Source: Armatimonadota bacterium (lineage in GTDB: Bacteria; Armatimonadota; UBA5829; DTLH01). From it: a DNA stretch of 64,000 nucleotides. The stretch spans positions 32,001 through 96,000 of the forward strand of contig JBDKUN010000065.1 of assembly GCA_039679675.1 (NCBI GenBank), in the 5' to 3' direction. The position numbers are program-made. Below, one piece after another: positions 51,001 through 57,000 of the stretch. Each line of letters begins with the position of its first letter. Position 1 is the first letter of the stretch.

Positions 51001-54000
51001 TTCGCCCGCAGGAGAACCCCAGTTCCATAAAGGGACTGCTGCAGAGCACAGCCGTCGCACTCCCTGTCTTCGTGATGGCGTTCATAGGGCTTGCATACGA
51101 GATCGGCGTACTGGCGGATTTCACTGCGATGTACATCCTCGGAAGCTGGCTCGGAACTTCCGAAGCTGCAGAAAAAGCGGAGTGTTGAGGTAAGCTATAG
51201 GATTCAGAATTCAGGATTTCTGCTTCGGGACCACAGTTCGTCCCGAAGCACGATTCTCCACCAATCCCTACATCTACACATCTAAAACCACAACAAGCGC
51301 CTGAATCCGTGCAGCAGGACTATTACCAGGAAAAAGACATTTCGAGCAAGGAGTCCCAAAGCCGACAACTTAGGTGCGGACTGCTTCTCATTATTCGATA
51401 ATGCCTTTACAAGCCTTGTGCCGAGGTTTTCCATCCACAATACGCTTCTCGGCCACTCCACAATCCCGCTGAGCCAGTCCACAGGGATTCCATCCTTGCC
51501 TACACCAGCTCCTATAATCCCGCCGACTATCGCTGCAGTTGTATCCGTATCCCCGCCGCAGTGTATTACATCCAACACTGCAGCTCGGTAATCGTTCAAA
51601 TTTCTAAACCAGGCATAAAGAGCTACCGGAACTGTAGAATAGACATAACCGCTTACGCCTCTTTCCAATCCCATTCCGGTAGCGAATTCCTCAGTGGTAG
51701 CCCCCAACTCCGAACTCTCGACAGCCGCCGTGACAAGATTTATGAACTCTTCCGATTCGTCTCCGAGAAGACCAACTAACATATGCAGATAGTCCCTCGG
51801 ATTGGCTTCACCCTGCGCGGATAAATATGCTGCCAATGCAACGGCAAATGCGCCGTATTCGGCTTTGGGATCAGTGTGAGTAATCCGTGTCGATGCACGA
51901 ACCAGGTCACGCATCTTCTTCAGGTCGTCTCCGTAGCAAACGCCGATGATTGCACTCCTCATCGCCGGGCCGTTTCCAGCAGAAAAGACTCCGCTCCGGC
52001 TTGGTGAAGTGCCAATCAGCAACCTAAGTGCGGACTTCACCGTAGCCATCCCAGCACCGGCAGGAAGCATAATGAGCCAACGCTTCAACCTACTGGCAAA
52101 GCATTTGGTAAAGGCATCACAGTCTCCAACAGATTCGATTATAGACTGGGCAACCATACAGGTGTGCTCTGTATCATCGGATATCATCCCACGACCGAAG
52201 AAAAACCTGTACCCGTCGAGTTTCGGAAACACCCGTTTCTGCCGCTTTCTGGAAAGTCCCTCCACCGGCAGTCCAATTGCATCTCCCACCGCCGTGCCGA
52301 GAATGCAGCCTATTACTGAACGCTCCATGAAAGCCACCTTACCCCCTCCTGAACCTCACCAGTATCACTTTCTGAGGACTTTCTATCTCCTTAAAAGCAT
52401 CGAGCATGACTTTTTCAGCTCTAGATGCGCTGAACCCTCCCGACCCGGCTCCGATGATAGGAAATGCCAGTGATTTAATGCCGAGTTCCTCGACAATCTT
52501 CATAGCGTTTACCACAGAACCTCGAATCGACCCTTCAGATGCTCTCCAAAGCATGTTGATCCCGGCTACATGGATGATTGCCTTGTAAGGAAGCCTCCCG
52601 GCAGAGGTGGCAACCGCTCCGCCGAGTGGAATCGGCCCAACTTTGGCAAGTTCCTTGAACGGCTGGTAACCAGCACGCTTCTTTATTGCCCCTGATACCC
52701 CTTGAGGGAGCAGAAGCCACCAGGGAATGATGTTTCTGTTCCAGGCATTTACGATGGCTTCCACAGGCTGATCGAGCAGATCGCCTTCGACTATCTTTAC
52801 ATCCATTTTTCCAAATTCCTTGCTTCCTACTCATGCAGATGAAGCTGTGCCGACTTCTGACCGTCCTCTATTCTGATCAGCCGGTCCGGGTTTTGATACT
52901 GGGCAACCAGGTAGCGGGTCAGATCGATGTTCATCCCTTTCATCGATTGCAGAAACTCTATCTGCTCCCTGTCCATCGCTTTCTGGTGCTCTTCCTCTAT
53001 CTCGTTCACCATCCGTTTGGCAGAAGCATCCCTTTCCTGCTCGGCTTCAAGCTGACGCAGGGTCTCTTCGTAAGAAATTGACTGAAGTTGTATCTTATGC
53101 CGCTCTTCGGACTCCTCCATCTCCCGGCGCTGTTTTGCGCGCTCGGCTTCGCGTTCCAGCCGCAAGTCCGCAAGCTCCTGCGCCTGGTTTTCAGTCTCGG
53201 ATTCCAGTTTGAGCTTGGTCCTTGCCTCAATAGCCTGGTCGTGCATATTCTGAAGCGTCGCGCTCGCATGGTAGCCCCTGTACACGACCTTGTTGATCTT
53301 GTAGCCTATCCGCTCGCCCCGCTGGATTAACTGAGGATACGTTTCCAGGTCATTCAGCTTATTGGTCTGCTCTTTGAACCGCTCGAATGGGAGCGCTACA
53401 ACAAAGTCTATCACATCCGCAGTCACCGCATTGATGAAATCCGCGACTGGGTCGTGTGTCTGGTCCAGCATTTTTTCGATGTCTGTAAGCTCGAAGAAGA
53501 TCATCAGCTTGATGACCAGAAGCGCGTCATCAGCAGTCCGAACATCGCACACGTCAAAATACATCTGGTCGGGAATAATTCTGAGCTTGGCAAATCTGAG
53601 CGCACCGTAAACCTTCTTATTTGGGTCCTTCGGGTCTGACCCATGCCAGCAAAAATTGTGCAGCCACTCATTTGCCGCCGGAACATACATATCCGGCCCA
53701 CGGACAACCCGCCGGTCGACATGATCATCATCCTGCCGGTAGACGACGACGGCCTCGTTCGCATCTATGGCAAACGCCTTCTGCACAGAAATACTCTCAT
53801 GCAGAACAGGATTAAACCAGACCGACACCGGGCCGCGCAGATGCTCGCTTCGCCCGTTCTTATACACCACAGCCAAATATTCATCAGTCCCGGCAGCATA
53901 AAGCATCATTTTTTCGAGCTTGCGGCCGATAGTATAAACTCTTCTGGGACCGTCGATCATCTCGACTCTGCCCCGTTTGTCCCACACTGCTACACGTTCA

Positions 54001-57000
54001 CCCTGCCGAATTGTTGCGAACACTTTAAACCTCCTTTTATATCTCGAAATTGAATCCCTGCTCTGCAAGCTTCCGATATTTCTCCTCATCGAAGCTGTAG
54101 AGCCGTGCTGCTCGGTGCGCCACATCCTGCTGGACCTCGTCAAGCTCTACCAAAAGGTCCATGCCGAGTATCTTCTTTCGGAAATTCCGCTTGTCGAGCG
54201 TTGTTTCGAGGATAATTTCATACAGATGCTGAAGCTGAGAAAGAGTAAACCTCTCAGGAAGCAACTCGAAACCAATTGGCTGATACCTGACCTTTCCTTT
54301 CAGCCGTTCATGTGCCGTTTCGATTATCAGATTGTGGTCGAATACAAGCTGAGGCAGATCATCAACCGGAAACCAGAGCGCATTTCTGGCATCCGTCGCC
54401 GCTTGGATGTGGTGGTCATAGAGATTCACAAGCGCGTAGTAAGCAACACTCACTACCCTCTCCCTGGGGTCGCGGTCGACAGCGCCGAATGTATACAACT
54501 GCTCAAGATACACATCACCCACGCCGGTTTCTTCATGAAGTTCGCGGAGCGCTGCATCTTCGAGAGTTTCGTCGATATGAACAAACCCTCCCGGTAGCGC
54601 CCATTTTCCTGCAAACGGTTCCAGGTCCCTCTCGATAAGGAGGATTTTCAAATTCTCCTCATCAACCCCGAATACGACACAATCTACCGTCAGTGCCGGT
54701 CTCGGATACTCGTATGTATACGCCATTGTGCATTCACCCCCTACTTAGTGTATTCCCTACACTTATAATAGTGTAACATTCACACTATGTCAAGGAATAT
54801 TTTGATTTAATTGAAATAAATATTCAAGGTGCAGCCGTCGCTCTACCCGTTTTCGTGATGGCGTTCATAGGGCTTGCATACGAGATCGGCGTACTGGCGG
54901 ATTTCACTGCGATGTACATCCTCGGAAGCTGGCTCGGAACTTCCGAAGCTGCAGAAAAAGCGGAGTGTTGAGGATTTCAAATGTAAAAATCTATAAGCAT
55001 GATTTAGAATCTAGATCCGCGCCTGATTCTTGACTTGAATATCAATGGCATTGCAAACACACCTGCAGCACATAACAAATGAAAGAATATTGCAGGCATC
55101 AGGTATGTTTTTGGATCAGGAAAAAGAAGGGAATAGGGCAAGTAGATAGCTATAAATATTCCGGGTCCAATAAAAAACCCGCCGACTAGCACTGCAATAA
55201 GCCCAAGCCATGCTTTAGATGATTTCCATTGATTGCTCACTGCCATACCGATAATAACTCCTACAAGCGAGCCTATAATAAACCCCAAAAACTCAAGAAT
55301 CGCCGGAATCCAAAAAGCTATCGGTCCCATACAAGTATTTTTATCTATCGGTTGTGCTGCCATAACAATAAACAGCAGAGCACCCGGAAAAGCACCGATC
55401 ACTGCGCCTGAAGCTATGTAGAACCAGGGCTTGAGCCTGTTCAACGCTTCAATCTGCTCCTGTTCTTCAGAAGGTGCTGCCTGCTCTTTTGTTTCGGCTG
55501 CTTGTTCTCCTGCTCCAATTGCAGCAGCTATCTGTGCAACTGAAACTTGTGATGGGAGCATCAATATAGTTATTAACAGCAGGATTATGCTGATTGCTGA
55601 TCTAAGTGATACCGAAAGCAGGATTAGGACAAGGAAGATCATCCACATCAGTTGCCATACCCTTGCCGCGGTCCCACCTTTTGTTATCATCATCCACCAG
55701 AAAAGCCCGATGAACAGGAATATCATACTTGCCGGACTAGCGTGGATATCAATGGGGATTTTTGCACCGGATAAAAGCAAATACAAATAAAACGAGCTTA
55801 TCAGCAGAAGCGCAATCAGGCCGATTACAGCTTTCAACCGCCATGCTCTGTCAGCTTGCCGCCATACTGTAAGCCTTATATCAGGATTATCATCCTGCCG
55901 CATCAGACCCACCTCCGCTTACTTAATTATATTGAACTACTCTTTCATCCTCTGCCGCACAATTTCGAGTATCTCCTGCACTAAGCAATCGCACTCGCTG
56001 CGGATTTCTGATGCGCGGCTGCTGAGATTCTGTTTCAACGCTTCGTCGCTGATCGACGGCAGGTTGATTTCAACGTTCAGGTTTGCGCCTTCACAGGCTG
56101 CGCGGGCCATCAGTGCGCCGACTCCGGCATCCGAGGCGGAATTGACGTTTCCTTTGGCTGCAATCGGCTTTAAGCAGCCGAGCAGAGTCCGCACTTCCGC
56201 CATTACGGAAAGCGGAACCTCAGTTGCACCCTTGTAAGCCTCCTGAAGCGCCTTTTCTCTAAGCTCGATCTCCTCCGGCGTGTCCTTCGGGAGCTTTATG
56301 GCGGCCATCACGGCATCGAACGCCTTCGCGTCGGCATCTATGGCGCTAGTAAGCTTCGATCTCGACCGTTCAGTTTGCTTAAGTGCTTCGGCAAGCTCCT
56401 CGGATACATCGGCATACTTCTTTCTGCCAACCGTCAACCTGCAGACCATCGAGCTGAGCGCTGCCGCGAGCGCTCCGGCAAGCGCGGAGACGCTTCCGCC
56501 GCCCGGCGCGGGAGATTTCGACGCAACTTCGTCTATAAACATCGTCGGGATGCTTTCCGCATCTCCCCCACCCCAAAGTTTGTTCTCAAGCACCTGCTCA
56601 TGGCTAAAGTTATCGAGCTGGAGATAATATTCCGCCGTGTTCACCATCGCTTCGAGCGGCACAAGCCCGATTATCTCGCTGTCCGTAACCGAAACACCGT
56701 AGCGGACAGCTTCTCGCTTAACGAACTCGAACGCATCGTGCATCGGTGTGCCTTTGTAGTTCGTCAGGTTCATCGAAACCTGCACACACCCACGCTCTCG
56801 AATCGCAAACCCGTTTGCCTTAACAAATCTGAACCCGCCGTCCTTGAACCTGATTCTCTTGGCGATCTTCTTTGCTGTGTCGAGGTTGTTCGTGTTGAGA
56901 TATATGTTATAAGCGATCAAAAAGTCGCGCACACCGACTGCCGTGGCACCTGCGGTCGGGTGGATTTTCGCCTCACCGAAGTCAGGATAGCGCGTGGGGT

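Follow-up and report, generated by a model that had tools for sequence, protein, structure and literature searches.

The function of the vault is still open, and its major vault protein (MVP) carries repeats N-terminal to an SPFH domain, an arrangement unique to the vault (PMC13100048). Two recent cryo-EM studies have found NAD+ and ADP-ribose in the vault shoulder, for a reason that is not explained (PMC12280208; 10.64898/2026.05.01.722283). In human vaults this pocket is occupied by ADP-ribose even when no nucleotide has been added (10.64898/2026.05.01.722283; title of PDB 9MXJ), and the pocket residues named are K506, R511, L517, D521 and W545 (PMC12280208). Short vault-like proteins are already known from archaea; they include an Asgard MVP with five repeats (PMC12962969) and one-repeat archaeal proteins of 317–396 aa (PMC13607799). 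We found no description in the open-access literature of the family presented here, mini-MVP, or of its regulation.

The window is a 64,000-nt stretch of an Armatimonadota genome (contig positions 32001–96000), and an offset of 32000, not 40829, places the contig positions of the survey on the range of its finding. The order nrtR, mini-MVP, macrodomain gene, ADP-ribosylglycohydrolase (ARH) gene given there was recovered; the four genes share the minus strand and are 13, 20 and 1 nt apart. The features are:

51049–51190, unstranded: left copy of a 142-nt direct repeat, at the 3' end of the ORF 50775–51188
51282–52337, minus strand: ARH, 351 aa (Pfam ADP_ribosyl_GH, E 4e-64)
52339–52806, minus strand: macrodomain protein, 155 aa (Pfam Macro, E 2.4e-23)
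52827–54023, minus strand: mini-MVP, 398 aa, with three repeats, SPFH shoulder and long helix (AF2 model, Foldseek)
54037–54726, minus strand: nrtR, 229 aa, Nudix effector domain and winged helix, a predicted ADP-ribose-responsive repressor (Pfam NrtR_WHD, E 8e-29; NUDIX, E 2e-21)
54746–54764, unstranded: NrtR box 2, one mismatch, 23 nt from box 1 (genome motif search)
54765–54793, minus strand: putative sigma-70-like promoter, TTGACA-17-TATTAT, 11/12 consensus matches
54769–54787, unstranded: NrtR box 1, exact TAGTGT-N7-ACACTA palindrome (genome motif search)
54832–54973, unstranded: right copy of the 142-nt repeat, 97% identical to the left copy

The mini-MVP gene starts with GTG, 6 nt past an AAGGAGG site. 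A 438-aa reading from a TTG start was dropped because it overlaps nrtR by 107 nt; it is also disfavoured by the ribosome-binding site at the GTG and by the length of close relatives (399–402 aa).

Mini-MVP is almost certainly homologous to the major vault protein. Its AF2 model is confident (pLDDT 91 here, 85 in the survey's finding) and, as reported there, Foldseek ranks 1–12 are all MVP (E 4.8e-15 to 2.7e-10), with flotillin next at 1.6e-7. The model comprises three repeats (about residues 1–40, 41–82 and 83–124), a keyhole loop (about 126–137), an SPFH shoulder to about 254, a long helix (255–363) that aligns to MVP as far as residue ~777, and a low-confidence tail (377–398). Alignments to prohibitin, erlin, HflK/C, flotillin and stomatin begin mostly near residue 80, again as described before. 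An independent test comes from the N-terminal repeats, which by themselves are closest to MVP: residues 1–124 folded alone give a Foldseek TM of 0.61–0.76 to MVP and 0.18 to the next protein, and they align to MVP with Z 8.4 and rmsd 2.6 over 122 of 124 residues, the next non-MVP protein reaching Z 4.1 over 42. These may be the last MVP repeats, as described earlier, or others: the whole model aligns from MVP residue ~321, the isolated repeats best to residues 6–162.

The claim that no sequence-level hit to MVP exists is correct for mini-MVP itself (Vault_3 only at E 0.058; no PDB sequence match) but not for the family, in which 3 of the 43 chosen members pass the Pfam cut-off of Vault_3. Pfam MVP_shoulder does not match mini-MVP and reaches E 0.0012 in one family member. 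Against a profile of 19 full-length bacterial MVPs there is a match (P 94.9%, E 4e-8), located in the repeats. PDB sequence searches with mini-MVP, two family profiles and an 809-aa member returned no MVP. A single 841-aa bacterial MVP returned none either, whereas the 19-sequence profile finds MVP, so these blank searches reflect sensitivity.

Mini-MVP might instead be a membrane-stress SPFH half-cage in the manner of flotillin, stomatin or NrtX, co-regulated with NAD repair in a general damage response and binding no nucleotide. It shares shoulder and helix with such proteins (Z 12–13 to prohibitin, erlin and HflK/C), Band_7 matches 8 of the 43 chosen members, hydrophobic segments occur at the N-terminus of a few, and vaults make membrane contacts in situ (PMC13100048). 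However, no anchor precedes the SPFH domain in mini-MVP, whose N-terminus consists entirely of the three beta repeats and whose peak hydropathy (1.68 in a 19-residue window, at residue 193) lies within the shoulder; the protein also has the keyhole loop, which is unusual among SPFH domains (PMC12280208). NrtX, an SPFH gene known beside nrtR, had been left uncompared in the survey's finding. The Proteus mirabilis gene facing nrtR encodes a 338-aa SPFH protein (Band_7, E 9e-12) without a Vault match and is followed by a NAD-kinase-like gene; from the arrangement given in Table 1 of Rodionov 2008 (PMC2330246) we take it to be nrtX. It shows no convincing match to the mini-MVP family (hhalign P 5.6%, E 0.007), and no same-strand NAD-kinase-like cluster recurs among the neighbours of mini-MVP. 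Proteus NrtX is a separate Band-7 protein, mini-MVP is not an NrtX, and we consider a half-cage of this kind unlikely. The statement that the context is the first of its type can be kept for a protein with MVP repeats, in the searches made here, but not for the SPFH superfamily, since NrtR regulons already include NrtX.

Mini-MVP very probably belongs to an NrtR regulon. As marks of such a regulon we used a GT-N7-AC palindrome over the promoter (consensus from PMC2330246) and a Nudix/winged-helix NrtR gene, and both are present here. The exact box sits inside the spacer of the sigma-70-like promoter, and the two palindromes, previously called the best intergenic matches, are the sole sites with at most one mismatch in the 3.14-Mb genome. 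The nrtR product matches NCBIfam NF050029 with E 4.5e-52, below that model's cut-off; the one RNA run matched only a genome-wide repeat.

The survey's 1700 homologues were reproduced, and 55 of 80 loci carry NAD/ADP-ribose genes within 3.5 kb, against 58 counted before: PncA in 45, NrtR and Nudix in 39 each, ARH in 36 and Tpt1 in 29, more rarely NadE (20), PARG (15), PncB (6), macrodomain (5) and NADAR (5). Strand agreement, said to be without exception, is broken by one ARH match (L063). The link does recur across phyla, with seven phylum-level labels besides the host, but the Myxococcota loci belong to those without it. The arrangement is present in the named strains Haloferula rosea KCTC 22201, Adhaeretor mobilis HG15A2 and Poriferisphaera sp. 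WC338. NrtR boxes lie upstream in 51 of the 55 linked loci; the search gave 101 sites in 279 kb of upstream sequence, compared with 2 in 265 kb of downstream sequence and 0–5 in ten shuffles, with a box-to-box spacing of 22–23 nt in many related loci. At four loci (L039, L042, L046 and L060) a box stands directly ahead of the mini-MVP gene with no adjacent nrtR. Because the box precedes the gene even there, the regulatory link is stronger than the survey had stated.

A set of 22 loci without such neighbours is, as indicated earlier, a distinct group, the second bacterial clade of a quick tree (clade B), which also lacks boxes and has a remodelled keyhole loop. The contrast between clades A and B is one evolutionary event. 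The linked loci all fall in one clade and are therefore not independent, which would suit a passenger, that is, a eukaryote-derived gene that landed once in a NAD operon and travels along, its function having nothing to do with NAD or ADP-ribose. The absence of this context from clade B and, by inference, from eukaryotic members points the same way, as does the family's sequence diversity, most of which is found beyond the two bacterial clades, in proteins labelled as eukaryotic (in an unrooted FastTree, from which the direction of bacteria/eukaryote transfer is not readable). Yet the gene persists although the genes around it have been rearranged into many different orders, it is still present in the four-gene operon of the window, and where no nrtR accompanies it, it retains an NrtR box of its own; we regard a mere passenger as very unlikely.

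Judged from its sequences, the family is not mainly bacterial, with members also in molluscs, rotifers, a choanoflagellate, amoebae and other protists. Three repeats, as in mini-MVP, are found in 140 of 269 relatives and five in 37, with up to 8 detected, and two Myxococcota genomes hold both the mini-MVP type and a full-length MVP. Viral contigs searched with two profiles gave no family member, BFVD matches were SPFH-type proteins of 8–15% identity, and a metagenome scan with a single protein gave one partial locus. A search of proteins of 868–2475 aa returned one MshEN fusion and no canonical MVP, which is weak evidence.

The operon in the window is a recent insertion: the 142-nt direct repeats flank it, and a congener (G001) has a single copy at the same site. 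Repeat depth is about double in runs that are a possible source of the assembly; two such DNA runs, whose contigs drop rare variants, contained no excised form. The operon moves horizontally, and this movement would fit a capture scaffold, a cage that traps ADP-ribosylated RNA, DNA or proteins, for example after a competitor or phage has attacked with ADP-ribosylating toxins, and offers them to ARH, PARG, macrodomain, NADAR and Tpt1, the binding of free nucleotide being incidental. ADP-ribose erasers are the commonest non-salvage neighbours, often with two to three ARH copies per locus, the operon here retains only the macrodomain and ARH genes, and anchoring of ADP-ribosylated substrates has been raised as a possibility (PMC12280208). 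On the other hand, a modified macromolecule would require large pocket changes (PMC12280208), NAD-salvage genes (PncA 45, NadE 20) equal the erasers in frequency, and the annotated recurring neighbour clusters contain no toxin or defence family, though no PADLOC scan was made. Such a scaffold is improbable as the main role of mini-MVP. TEP1, PARP4 and vault RNA, at which no search was aimed, were likewise absent from the annotated neighbour clusters.

The pocket may bind ADP-ribose or NAD+, a possibility that the aligned conserved residues tip slightly in its favour. The keyhole loop aligns with that of bacterial MVPs and through it with human residues 500–511, and K132, K137, R148, D152 and F177 map on or beside human K506, R511, L517, D521 and W545. 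This mapping is a sequence alignment in two steps, by way of the profile of bacterial MVPs (E 1e-4 and P 58% for the pairwise match), in which the human residues were numbered by hand, and is not a superposition of structures. All 81 of 81 rows have K137 and D152, the counterparts by alignment of human R511 and D521, but since these rows show no variation at 46 of 261 positions, this is weak evidence for a ligand site. R148 is present in 57 of 59 clade-A rows, and tryptophan takes its place in 22 of 22 clade-B rows; K132 occurs in only 29 of the 59. Clade B retains K137 and D152 though it lacks the NAD context, and 149 more distant rows keep K137 in 94 and D152 in 85. A complex prediction with three copies of residues 1–295 and ADP-ribose scored 0.24 against a mark of 0.42, which counts neither for nor against binding.

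Mini-MVP is best explained as a short MVP paralogue within a regulon for ADP-ribose clean-up and NAD recycling. Our preferred reading, to which we give a probability of about 50%, is a self-assembling cage that is induced by ADP-ribose and binds ADP-ribose or NAD+ for this clean-up pathway. Rising free ADP-ribose would cause NrtR to leave the boxes over the promoter, a step suggested by box position and by the release of two other NrtR proteins by ADP-ribose in vitro (PMC2330246). Mini-MVP would then be made with enzymes for the removal of ADP-ribose from nucleic acids and proteins (ARH, macrodomain, PARG, NADAR), for its handling (Nudix, Tpt1) and for rebuilding NAD (PncA, PncB, NadE, Prs); the gene order is observed and we infer co-transcription. 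To judge from the fold, subunits probably line up next to one another, joined at the shoulder and the long helix, and form a soluble ring or a small cup resembling a vault; with only three repeats, a full-size closed barrel is not implied. ADP-ribose or NAD+ would be held behind the keyhole loop, between adjacent subunits as in the human vault, and binding would buffer reactive free ADP-ribose and keep it, or ADP-ribosylated substrates, near the recycling enzymes.

A bolder extension, which we find rather unlikely, is that the family forms an unrecognised second vault family in bacteria, protists, molluscs and rotifers, a small closed particle whose size is set by a repeat number of 3 to 8 and which serves as an inducible ADP-ribose-handling compartment with eraser and recycling enzymes inside. 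If this were true, nucleotide capture would be the ancestral job of the vault shell, predating PARP4 and TEP1. More directly, mini-MVP in a predicted ADP-ribose-sensing regulon offers independent genomic evidence for the link between vaults and NAD+/ADP-ribose, and its operon a simple route to testing whether vaults exist for ADP-ribose/NAD handling; binding, assembly and knockout can be addressed directly in the named strains. A second vault-like particle might be encoded by uncharacterised animal and protist genes that at present carry the label 'Band 7' or 'uncharacterized', and nanoparticle engineers would also take an interest in a smaller cage.

Compared with eukaryotic MVP (human 9BW5/9MXJ/9R86, rat 4V60, rabbit 9Z4W), mini-MVP shares tandem repeats, SPFH shoulder, keyhole loop, long cap helix and the lack of a membrane anchor, and it keeps in part residues that align to the NAD+/ADP-ribose pocket. 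It differs in size (398 aa and three repeats against 861–893 aa and nine, at 14–17% identity), in lacking a Pfam MVP_shoulder match, in its predicted NrtR control in bacteria and in being known here from genes and models. Full-length bacterial and phage homologues (PMC3762200; bioRxiv 10.1101/872010; 10.1101/2023.11.10.566534) have the keyhole loop and an arginine at the R148 position in common with mini-MVP; unlike it, the bacterial ones are ~840 aa long with strong MVP_shoulder matches, and their 21 loci, only 2 with wide flanks, showed no NAD/ADP-ribose genes nearby. The compact archaeal MVP-like proteins, compared through the available descriptions (PMC12962969, PMC13607799), which mention neither genomic context nor regulation, follow the same shortened plan of repeat, shoulder and tail, with five repeats or one against three in the commonest form of the mini-MVP family. 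In NrtX–NrtY, too, a gene for an SPFH cage protein is associated with NrtR, but this protein has no Vault match. Canonical SPFH cages (stomatin, prohibitin, flotillin, erlin, HflK/C) share the shoulder, the helix and one SPFH1-like subdomain with mini-MVP, and where they place a membrane anchor before the SPFH domain, mini-MVP has MVP repeats.

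The mini-MVP gene encodes a 398-aa relative of MVP, the major vault protein. It lies in a head-to-tail operon behind two NrtR boxes (TAGTGT-N7-ACACTA), with the same four genes that the survey's finding had described:

54769-54787, NrtR box 1, exact palindrome
54746-54764, NrtR box 2, palindrome with one mismatch
54037-54726, minus strand, nrtR, first of the four genes
52827-54023, minus strand, mini-MVP gene, 398 aa, 13 nt after nrtR
52339-52806, minus strand, macrodomain gene, 20 nt after the mini-MVP gene
51282-52337, minus strand, ADP-ribosylglycohydrolase (ARH) gene, 1 nt after the macrodomain gene
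51049-51190 and 54832-54973, 142-nt direct repeat, two copies flanking the operon, 97% identical

The boxes were previously ranked as the best intergenic matches in the genome; no other site in it comes within one mismatch of the palindrome. The exact copy fills the spacer of a predicted near-consensus sigma-70 promoter. Shortly past the ARH stop codon, a palindromic repeat of about 48 nt (51221-51268), with dozens of copies in the host genome and its congener, is REP-like and possibly the operon's terminator.

Free ADP-ribose is reactive. Beside the observed fold, gene order and box enrichment, we propose, with a probability of about 0.5, that mini-MVP is an ADP-ribose-induced soluble ring or small cage. 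ADP-ribose takes two other NrtR members off DNA in vitro (PMC2330246); its build-up would thus induce the mini-MVP gene, and the assembled protein would bind ADP-ribose or NAD+ between its shoulders, buffering the ligand and keeping it close to the clean-up enzymes.

All 60 host relatives examined lack the mini-MVP gene. In the congener both flanks are joined around a single copy of the 142-nt stretch, indicating an empty site, and in two DNA runs, possibly the source of the assembly, the operon has flank depth and the repeat approximately double depth. No integrase or transposase was found among the operon's ORFs. The simplest reading, we infer, is a recent gain by recombination. The adjoining stretch up to 55937 also differs from the congener and is a variable spot, where a membrane-protein gene (55004-55912) matches over 515 nt only (55031-55545).

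In the AF2 model, built on 133 sequences, the N-terminal part is all beta, followed by an SPFH shoulder and then a helix at 255-363; its pLDDT of 91 replaces the earlier value of 85. As before, Foldseek returned MVP at ranks 1-12 (E 4.8e-15 to 2.7e-10), ahead of flotillin (1.6e-7). VIA-align placed residues 1-381 onto MVP 321-777 (Z 17.0, 368 aligned, rmsd 7.9), and prohibitin (Z 12.8) covered 82-309, consistent with its reported start near residue 80. A cage responding to membrane stress would be another reading of such a shoulder, though a rather unlikely one. Because the helices and the common shoulder may inflate whole-model scores, residues 1-124 were also folded alone (pLDDT 96). Among the Foldseek matches listed, all ranks to 16 were MVP, with modest E (3e-4 to 4e-2) and TM of 0.61-0.76; the protein ranked next had a TM of 0.18. 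In a comparison with 48,161 chains, rat MVP 6-162 came first (Z 8.4, rmsd 2.6, 122 residues); the next non-MVP chain reached Z 4.1 over 42 residues, and stomatin, which covered a single repeat, Z 3.5. The three repeat units are also alike among themselves, and repeats of this type are described as unique to the vault (PMC13100048). The survey's "last MVP beta-repeats" are thus MVP repeats, while "last" depends on the model, the whole model starting at MVP 321 (late) and the isolated repeats fitting best on 6-162 (early).

The reported lack of a sequence-level hit to MVP holds for the 398-aa protein itself (Vault_3 at E 0.058 only) but not for its family. Among 43 of 269 members chosen for domain search, mostly long or extended, Vault_3 matched five (three above cut-off, best 44 bits), Band_7 eight and, weakly, MVP_shoulder one. 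The family profile matched one built from 19 full-length MVPs of Myxococcota (P 94.9%, E 4e-8), and this second profile finds solved MVPs at E 1e-58. Of 269 members, 140 have three repeats together with the shoulder and the C-terminal motif, and 37 have five repeats; the most detected was eight. The family is homologous to MVP and predicted to work like it; since mini-MVP does not have nine repeats, it forms a distinct short family.

A genome scan confirmed 228 relatives, and neighbours were counted at the best 80 of these. An NAD/ADP-ribose gene lies within 3.5 kb at 55 loci, slightly fewer than the 58 claimed, and at least three families do so at 44. The recount gave PncA 45, NrtR 39, Nudix 39, ARH 36, Tpt1 29, NadE 20, PARG 15, PncB 6, macro 5 and NADAR 5 (previously PncA-like 46, NrtR 40, ARH 33, Tpt1 30, NadE 23, macro 5); one match on the opposite strand overturns the statement that all share a strand. 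The typical order is pncB-nadE-nrtR-ARH-pncA-PARG-ARH-gene-Nudix-tpt1, with many reshuffled versions. We take the enzyme roles of PncA, PncB, NadE, Prs, Tpt1, PARG, NADAR and ARH to be those of their Pfam/NCBIfam names. That mini-MVP is a trap for modified macromolecules is a doubtful reading of this neighbourhood, and our preferred reading remains the ligand-buffering cage. DUF4291 genes (L006, L010, L017, L027) and nucleoside-2-deoxyribosyltransferase-like genes (Nuc_deoxyri_tr2; L022, L028, L038, L041) each recur inside operons at 4/80 loci, which suggests roles in ADP-ribose or NAD metabolism.

In a quick tree of 81 rows, clade A (59 rows, 56 linked) comprises Planctomycetota, Verrucomicrobiota, Lentisphaerota, Acidobacteriota, Omnitrophota, Sericytochromatia, Eisenbacteria and the host. 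Clade B, in which none of the 22 rows is linked, comprises Gemmataceae and other Planctomycetota, Myxococcota and two bins labelled Alcaligenaceae, and equals in number the 22 distant loci noted earlier; the link therefore recurs across several phyla as claimed, except in Myxococcota. With a relaxed box pattern, an upstream site was found in 51/55 linked loci, the other four having 34-1975 nt of upstream DNA. Sites numbered 101 in 279 kb upstream; the 265 kb downstream had 2, and ten shuffles gave 0-5. At L039, L042, L046 and L060, where nrtR is not adjacent, a box lies 52-66 nt ahead of the match; at L039 and L042 the flanking DNA examined shows no NAD neighbour, so that with the linked loci 57/58 clade-A loci have a neighbour or box, versus 0/22 in clade B. 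That the gene is a mere passenger is very unlikely. Five of nine clade-B proteins tested carry an N-terminally fused MshEN domain (L053:5353-7182, L055, L059, L068, L074), a family that includes c-di-GMP sensors. Two Myxococcota genomes, G061 (L065/L090) and G062 (L071/L091), encode a clade-B short protein together with a full-length MVP of 841-842 aa, which in each case has an OPT transporter and an M17 peptidase as neighbours.

NAD+ and ADP bind to human MVP behind a keyhole loop at tens of micromolar, in a pocket whose lining includes R504, K506, R511, L517, D521, F522 and W545 (PMC12280208), and ADP-ribose is present there in brain vaults with no nucleotide added (10.64898/2026.05.01.722283). 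By alignment via the bacterial MVP profile, with a weak pairwise step (E 1e-4), residues 126-137 map onto human 500-511, placing K132 on K506 and K137 on R511; R148, D152 and F177 map on or beside L517, D521 and W545. K137 and D152 are invariant in 81/81 bacterial rows, as are 46/261 positions overall, and are kept in 94 and 85 of 149 distant rows; K132 is kept in only 29/59 clade-A rows. Clade B has a glycine-rich loop, with W in place of R148 in 22/22. The contrast between the clades is one event and suggests that clade B may have changed its ligand.

A family profile search gave 1691 clusters at 50% identity. Of the best 150, 30 were looked up for their eukaryotic look: 13 were named eukaryotes, 17 had no organism and none was a named prokaryote. 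Members occur in Haliotis (77-Mb scaffold; 63 Mb in a second species), Aplysia, Mizuhopecten, Rotaria (13 members, scaffolds to 1 Mb), Salpingoeca, Copromyxa, Pelomyxa, Vermistella, Ploeotia, Pygsuia, Paulinella and Picozoa, with 32-46% identity across most of their length; for the animal members, scaffolds this large speak against contamination. Fifteen rows with short coverage, including the scallop protein, were left out of an unrooted core tree; among its 171 rows, clade A (35 rows) and clade B (18 rows) each form a compact group, and the other 118 rows are 12 labelled eukaryotes and 106 unlabelled. The nearest ESM Atlas cluster has 463 members, 67% eukaryotic, Mollusca being commonest. 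Other short clusters there (462-546 aa; Chloroflexota, rotifers, haptophytes, diatoms) combine Band_7 with Vault_3 and/or MVP_shoulder and are additional forms intermediate between SPFH proteins and MVP. In many eukaryote-like members the N-terminus is extended by a stretch that by eye resembles a mitochondrial targeting peptide (P0129, P0134, P0140, P0141, P0146, P0148, P0152, P0162, P0222, P0228), and P0228, from Picozoa, has a lipoyl-type domain in addition.

Full-length bacterial and phage MVPs (PMC3762200; 10.1101/872010; 10.1101/2023.11.10.566534), a five-repeat Asgard MVP (PMC12962969) and one-repeat archaeal forms (PMC13607799) are already known; in the mostly open-access literature searched, we found no description of the mini-MVP family, of its control by NrtR or of the animal genes. 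The comparison with NrtX, lacking in the survey, was also run. In Proteus mirabilis nrtR faces nrtX-nrtY (Table 1 of PMC2330246), and in the sequence record (L112:1342-3309) it faces a 338-aa SPFH-type (Band_7) protein, which is taken to be nrtX by gene arrangement. The next gene weakly matches NAD kinases, so that the uncharacterised nrtY may have an NAD-kinase-like function. The Band_7 protein has no convincing match to the mini-MVP family (P 5.6%), indicating that SPFH-superfamily genes were taken up twice in NrtR contexts. In described NrtR regulons the box, with core GT-N7-AC, is placed over the promoter, and the operon studied here has the same repressor layout, with the box inside the promoter spacer (PMC2330246).
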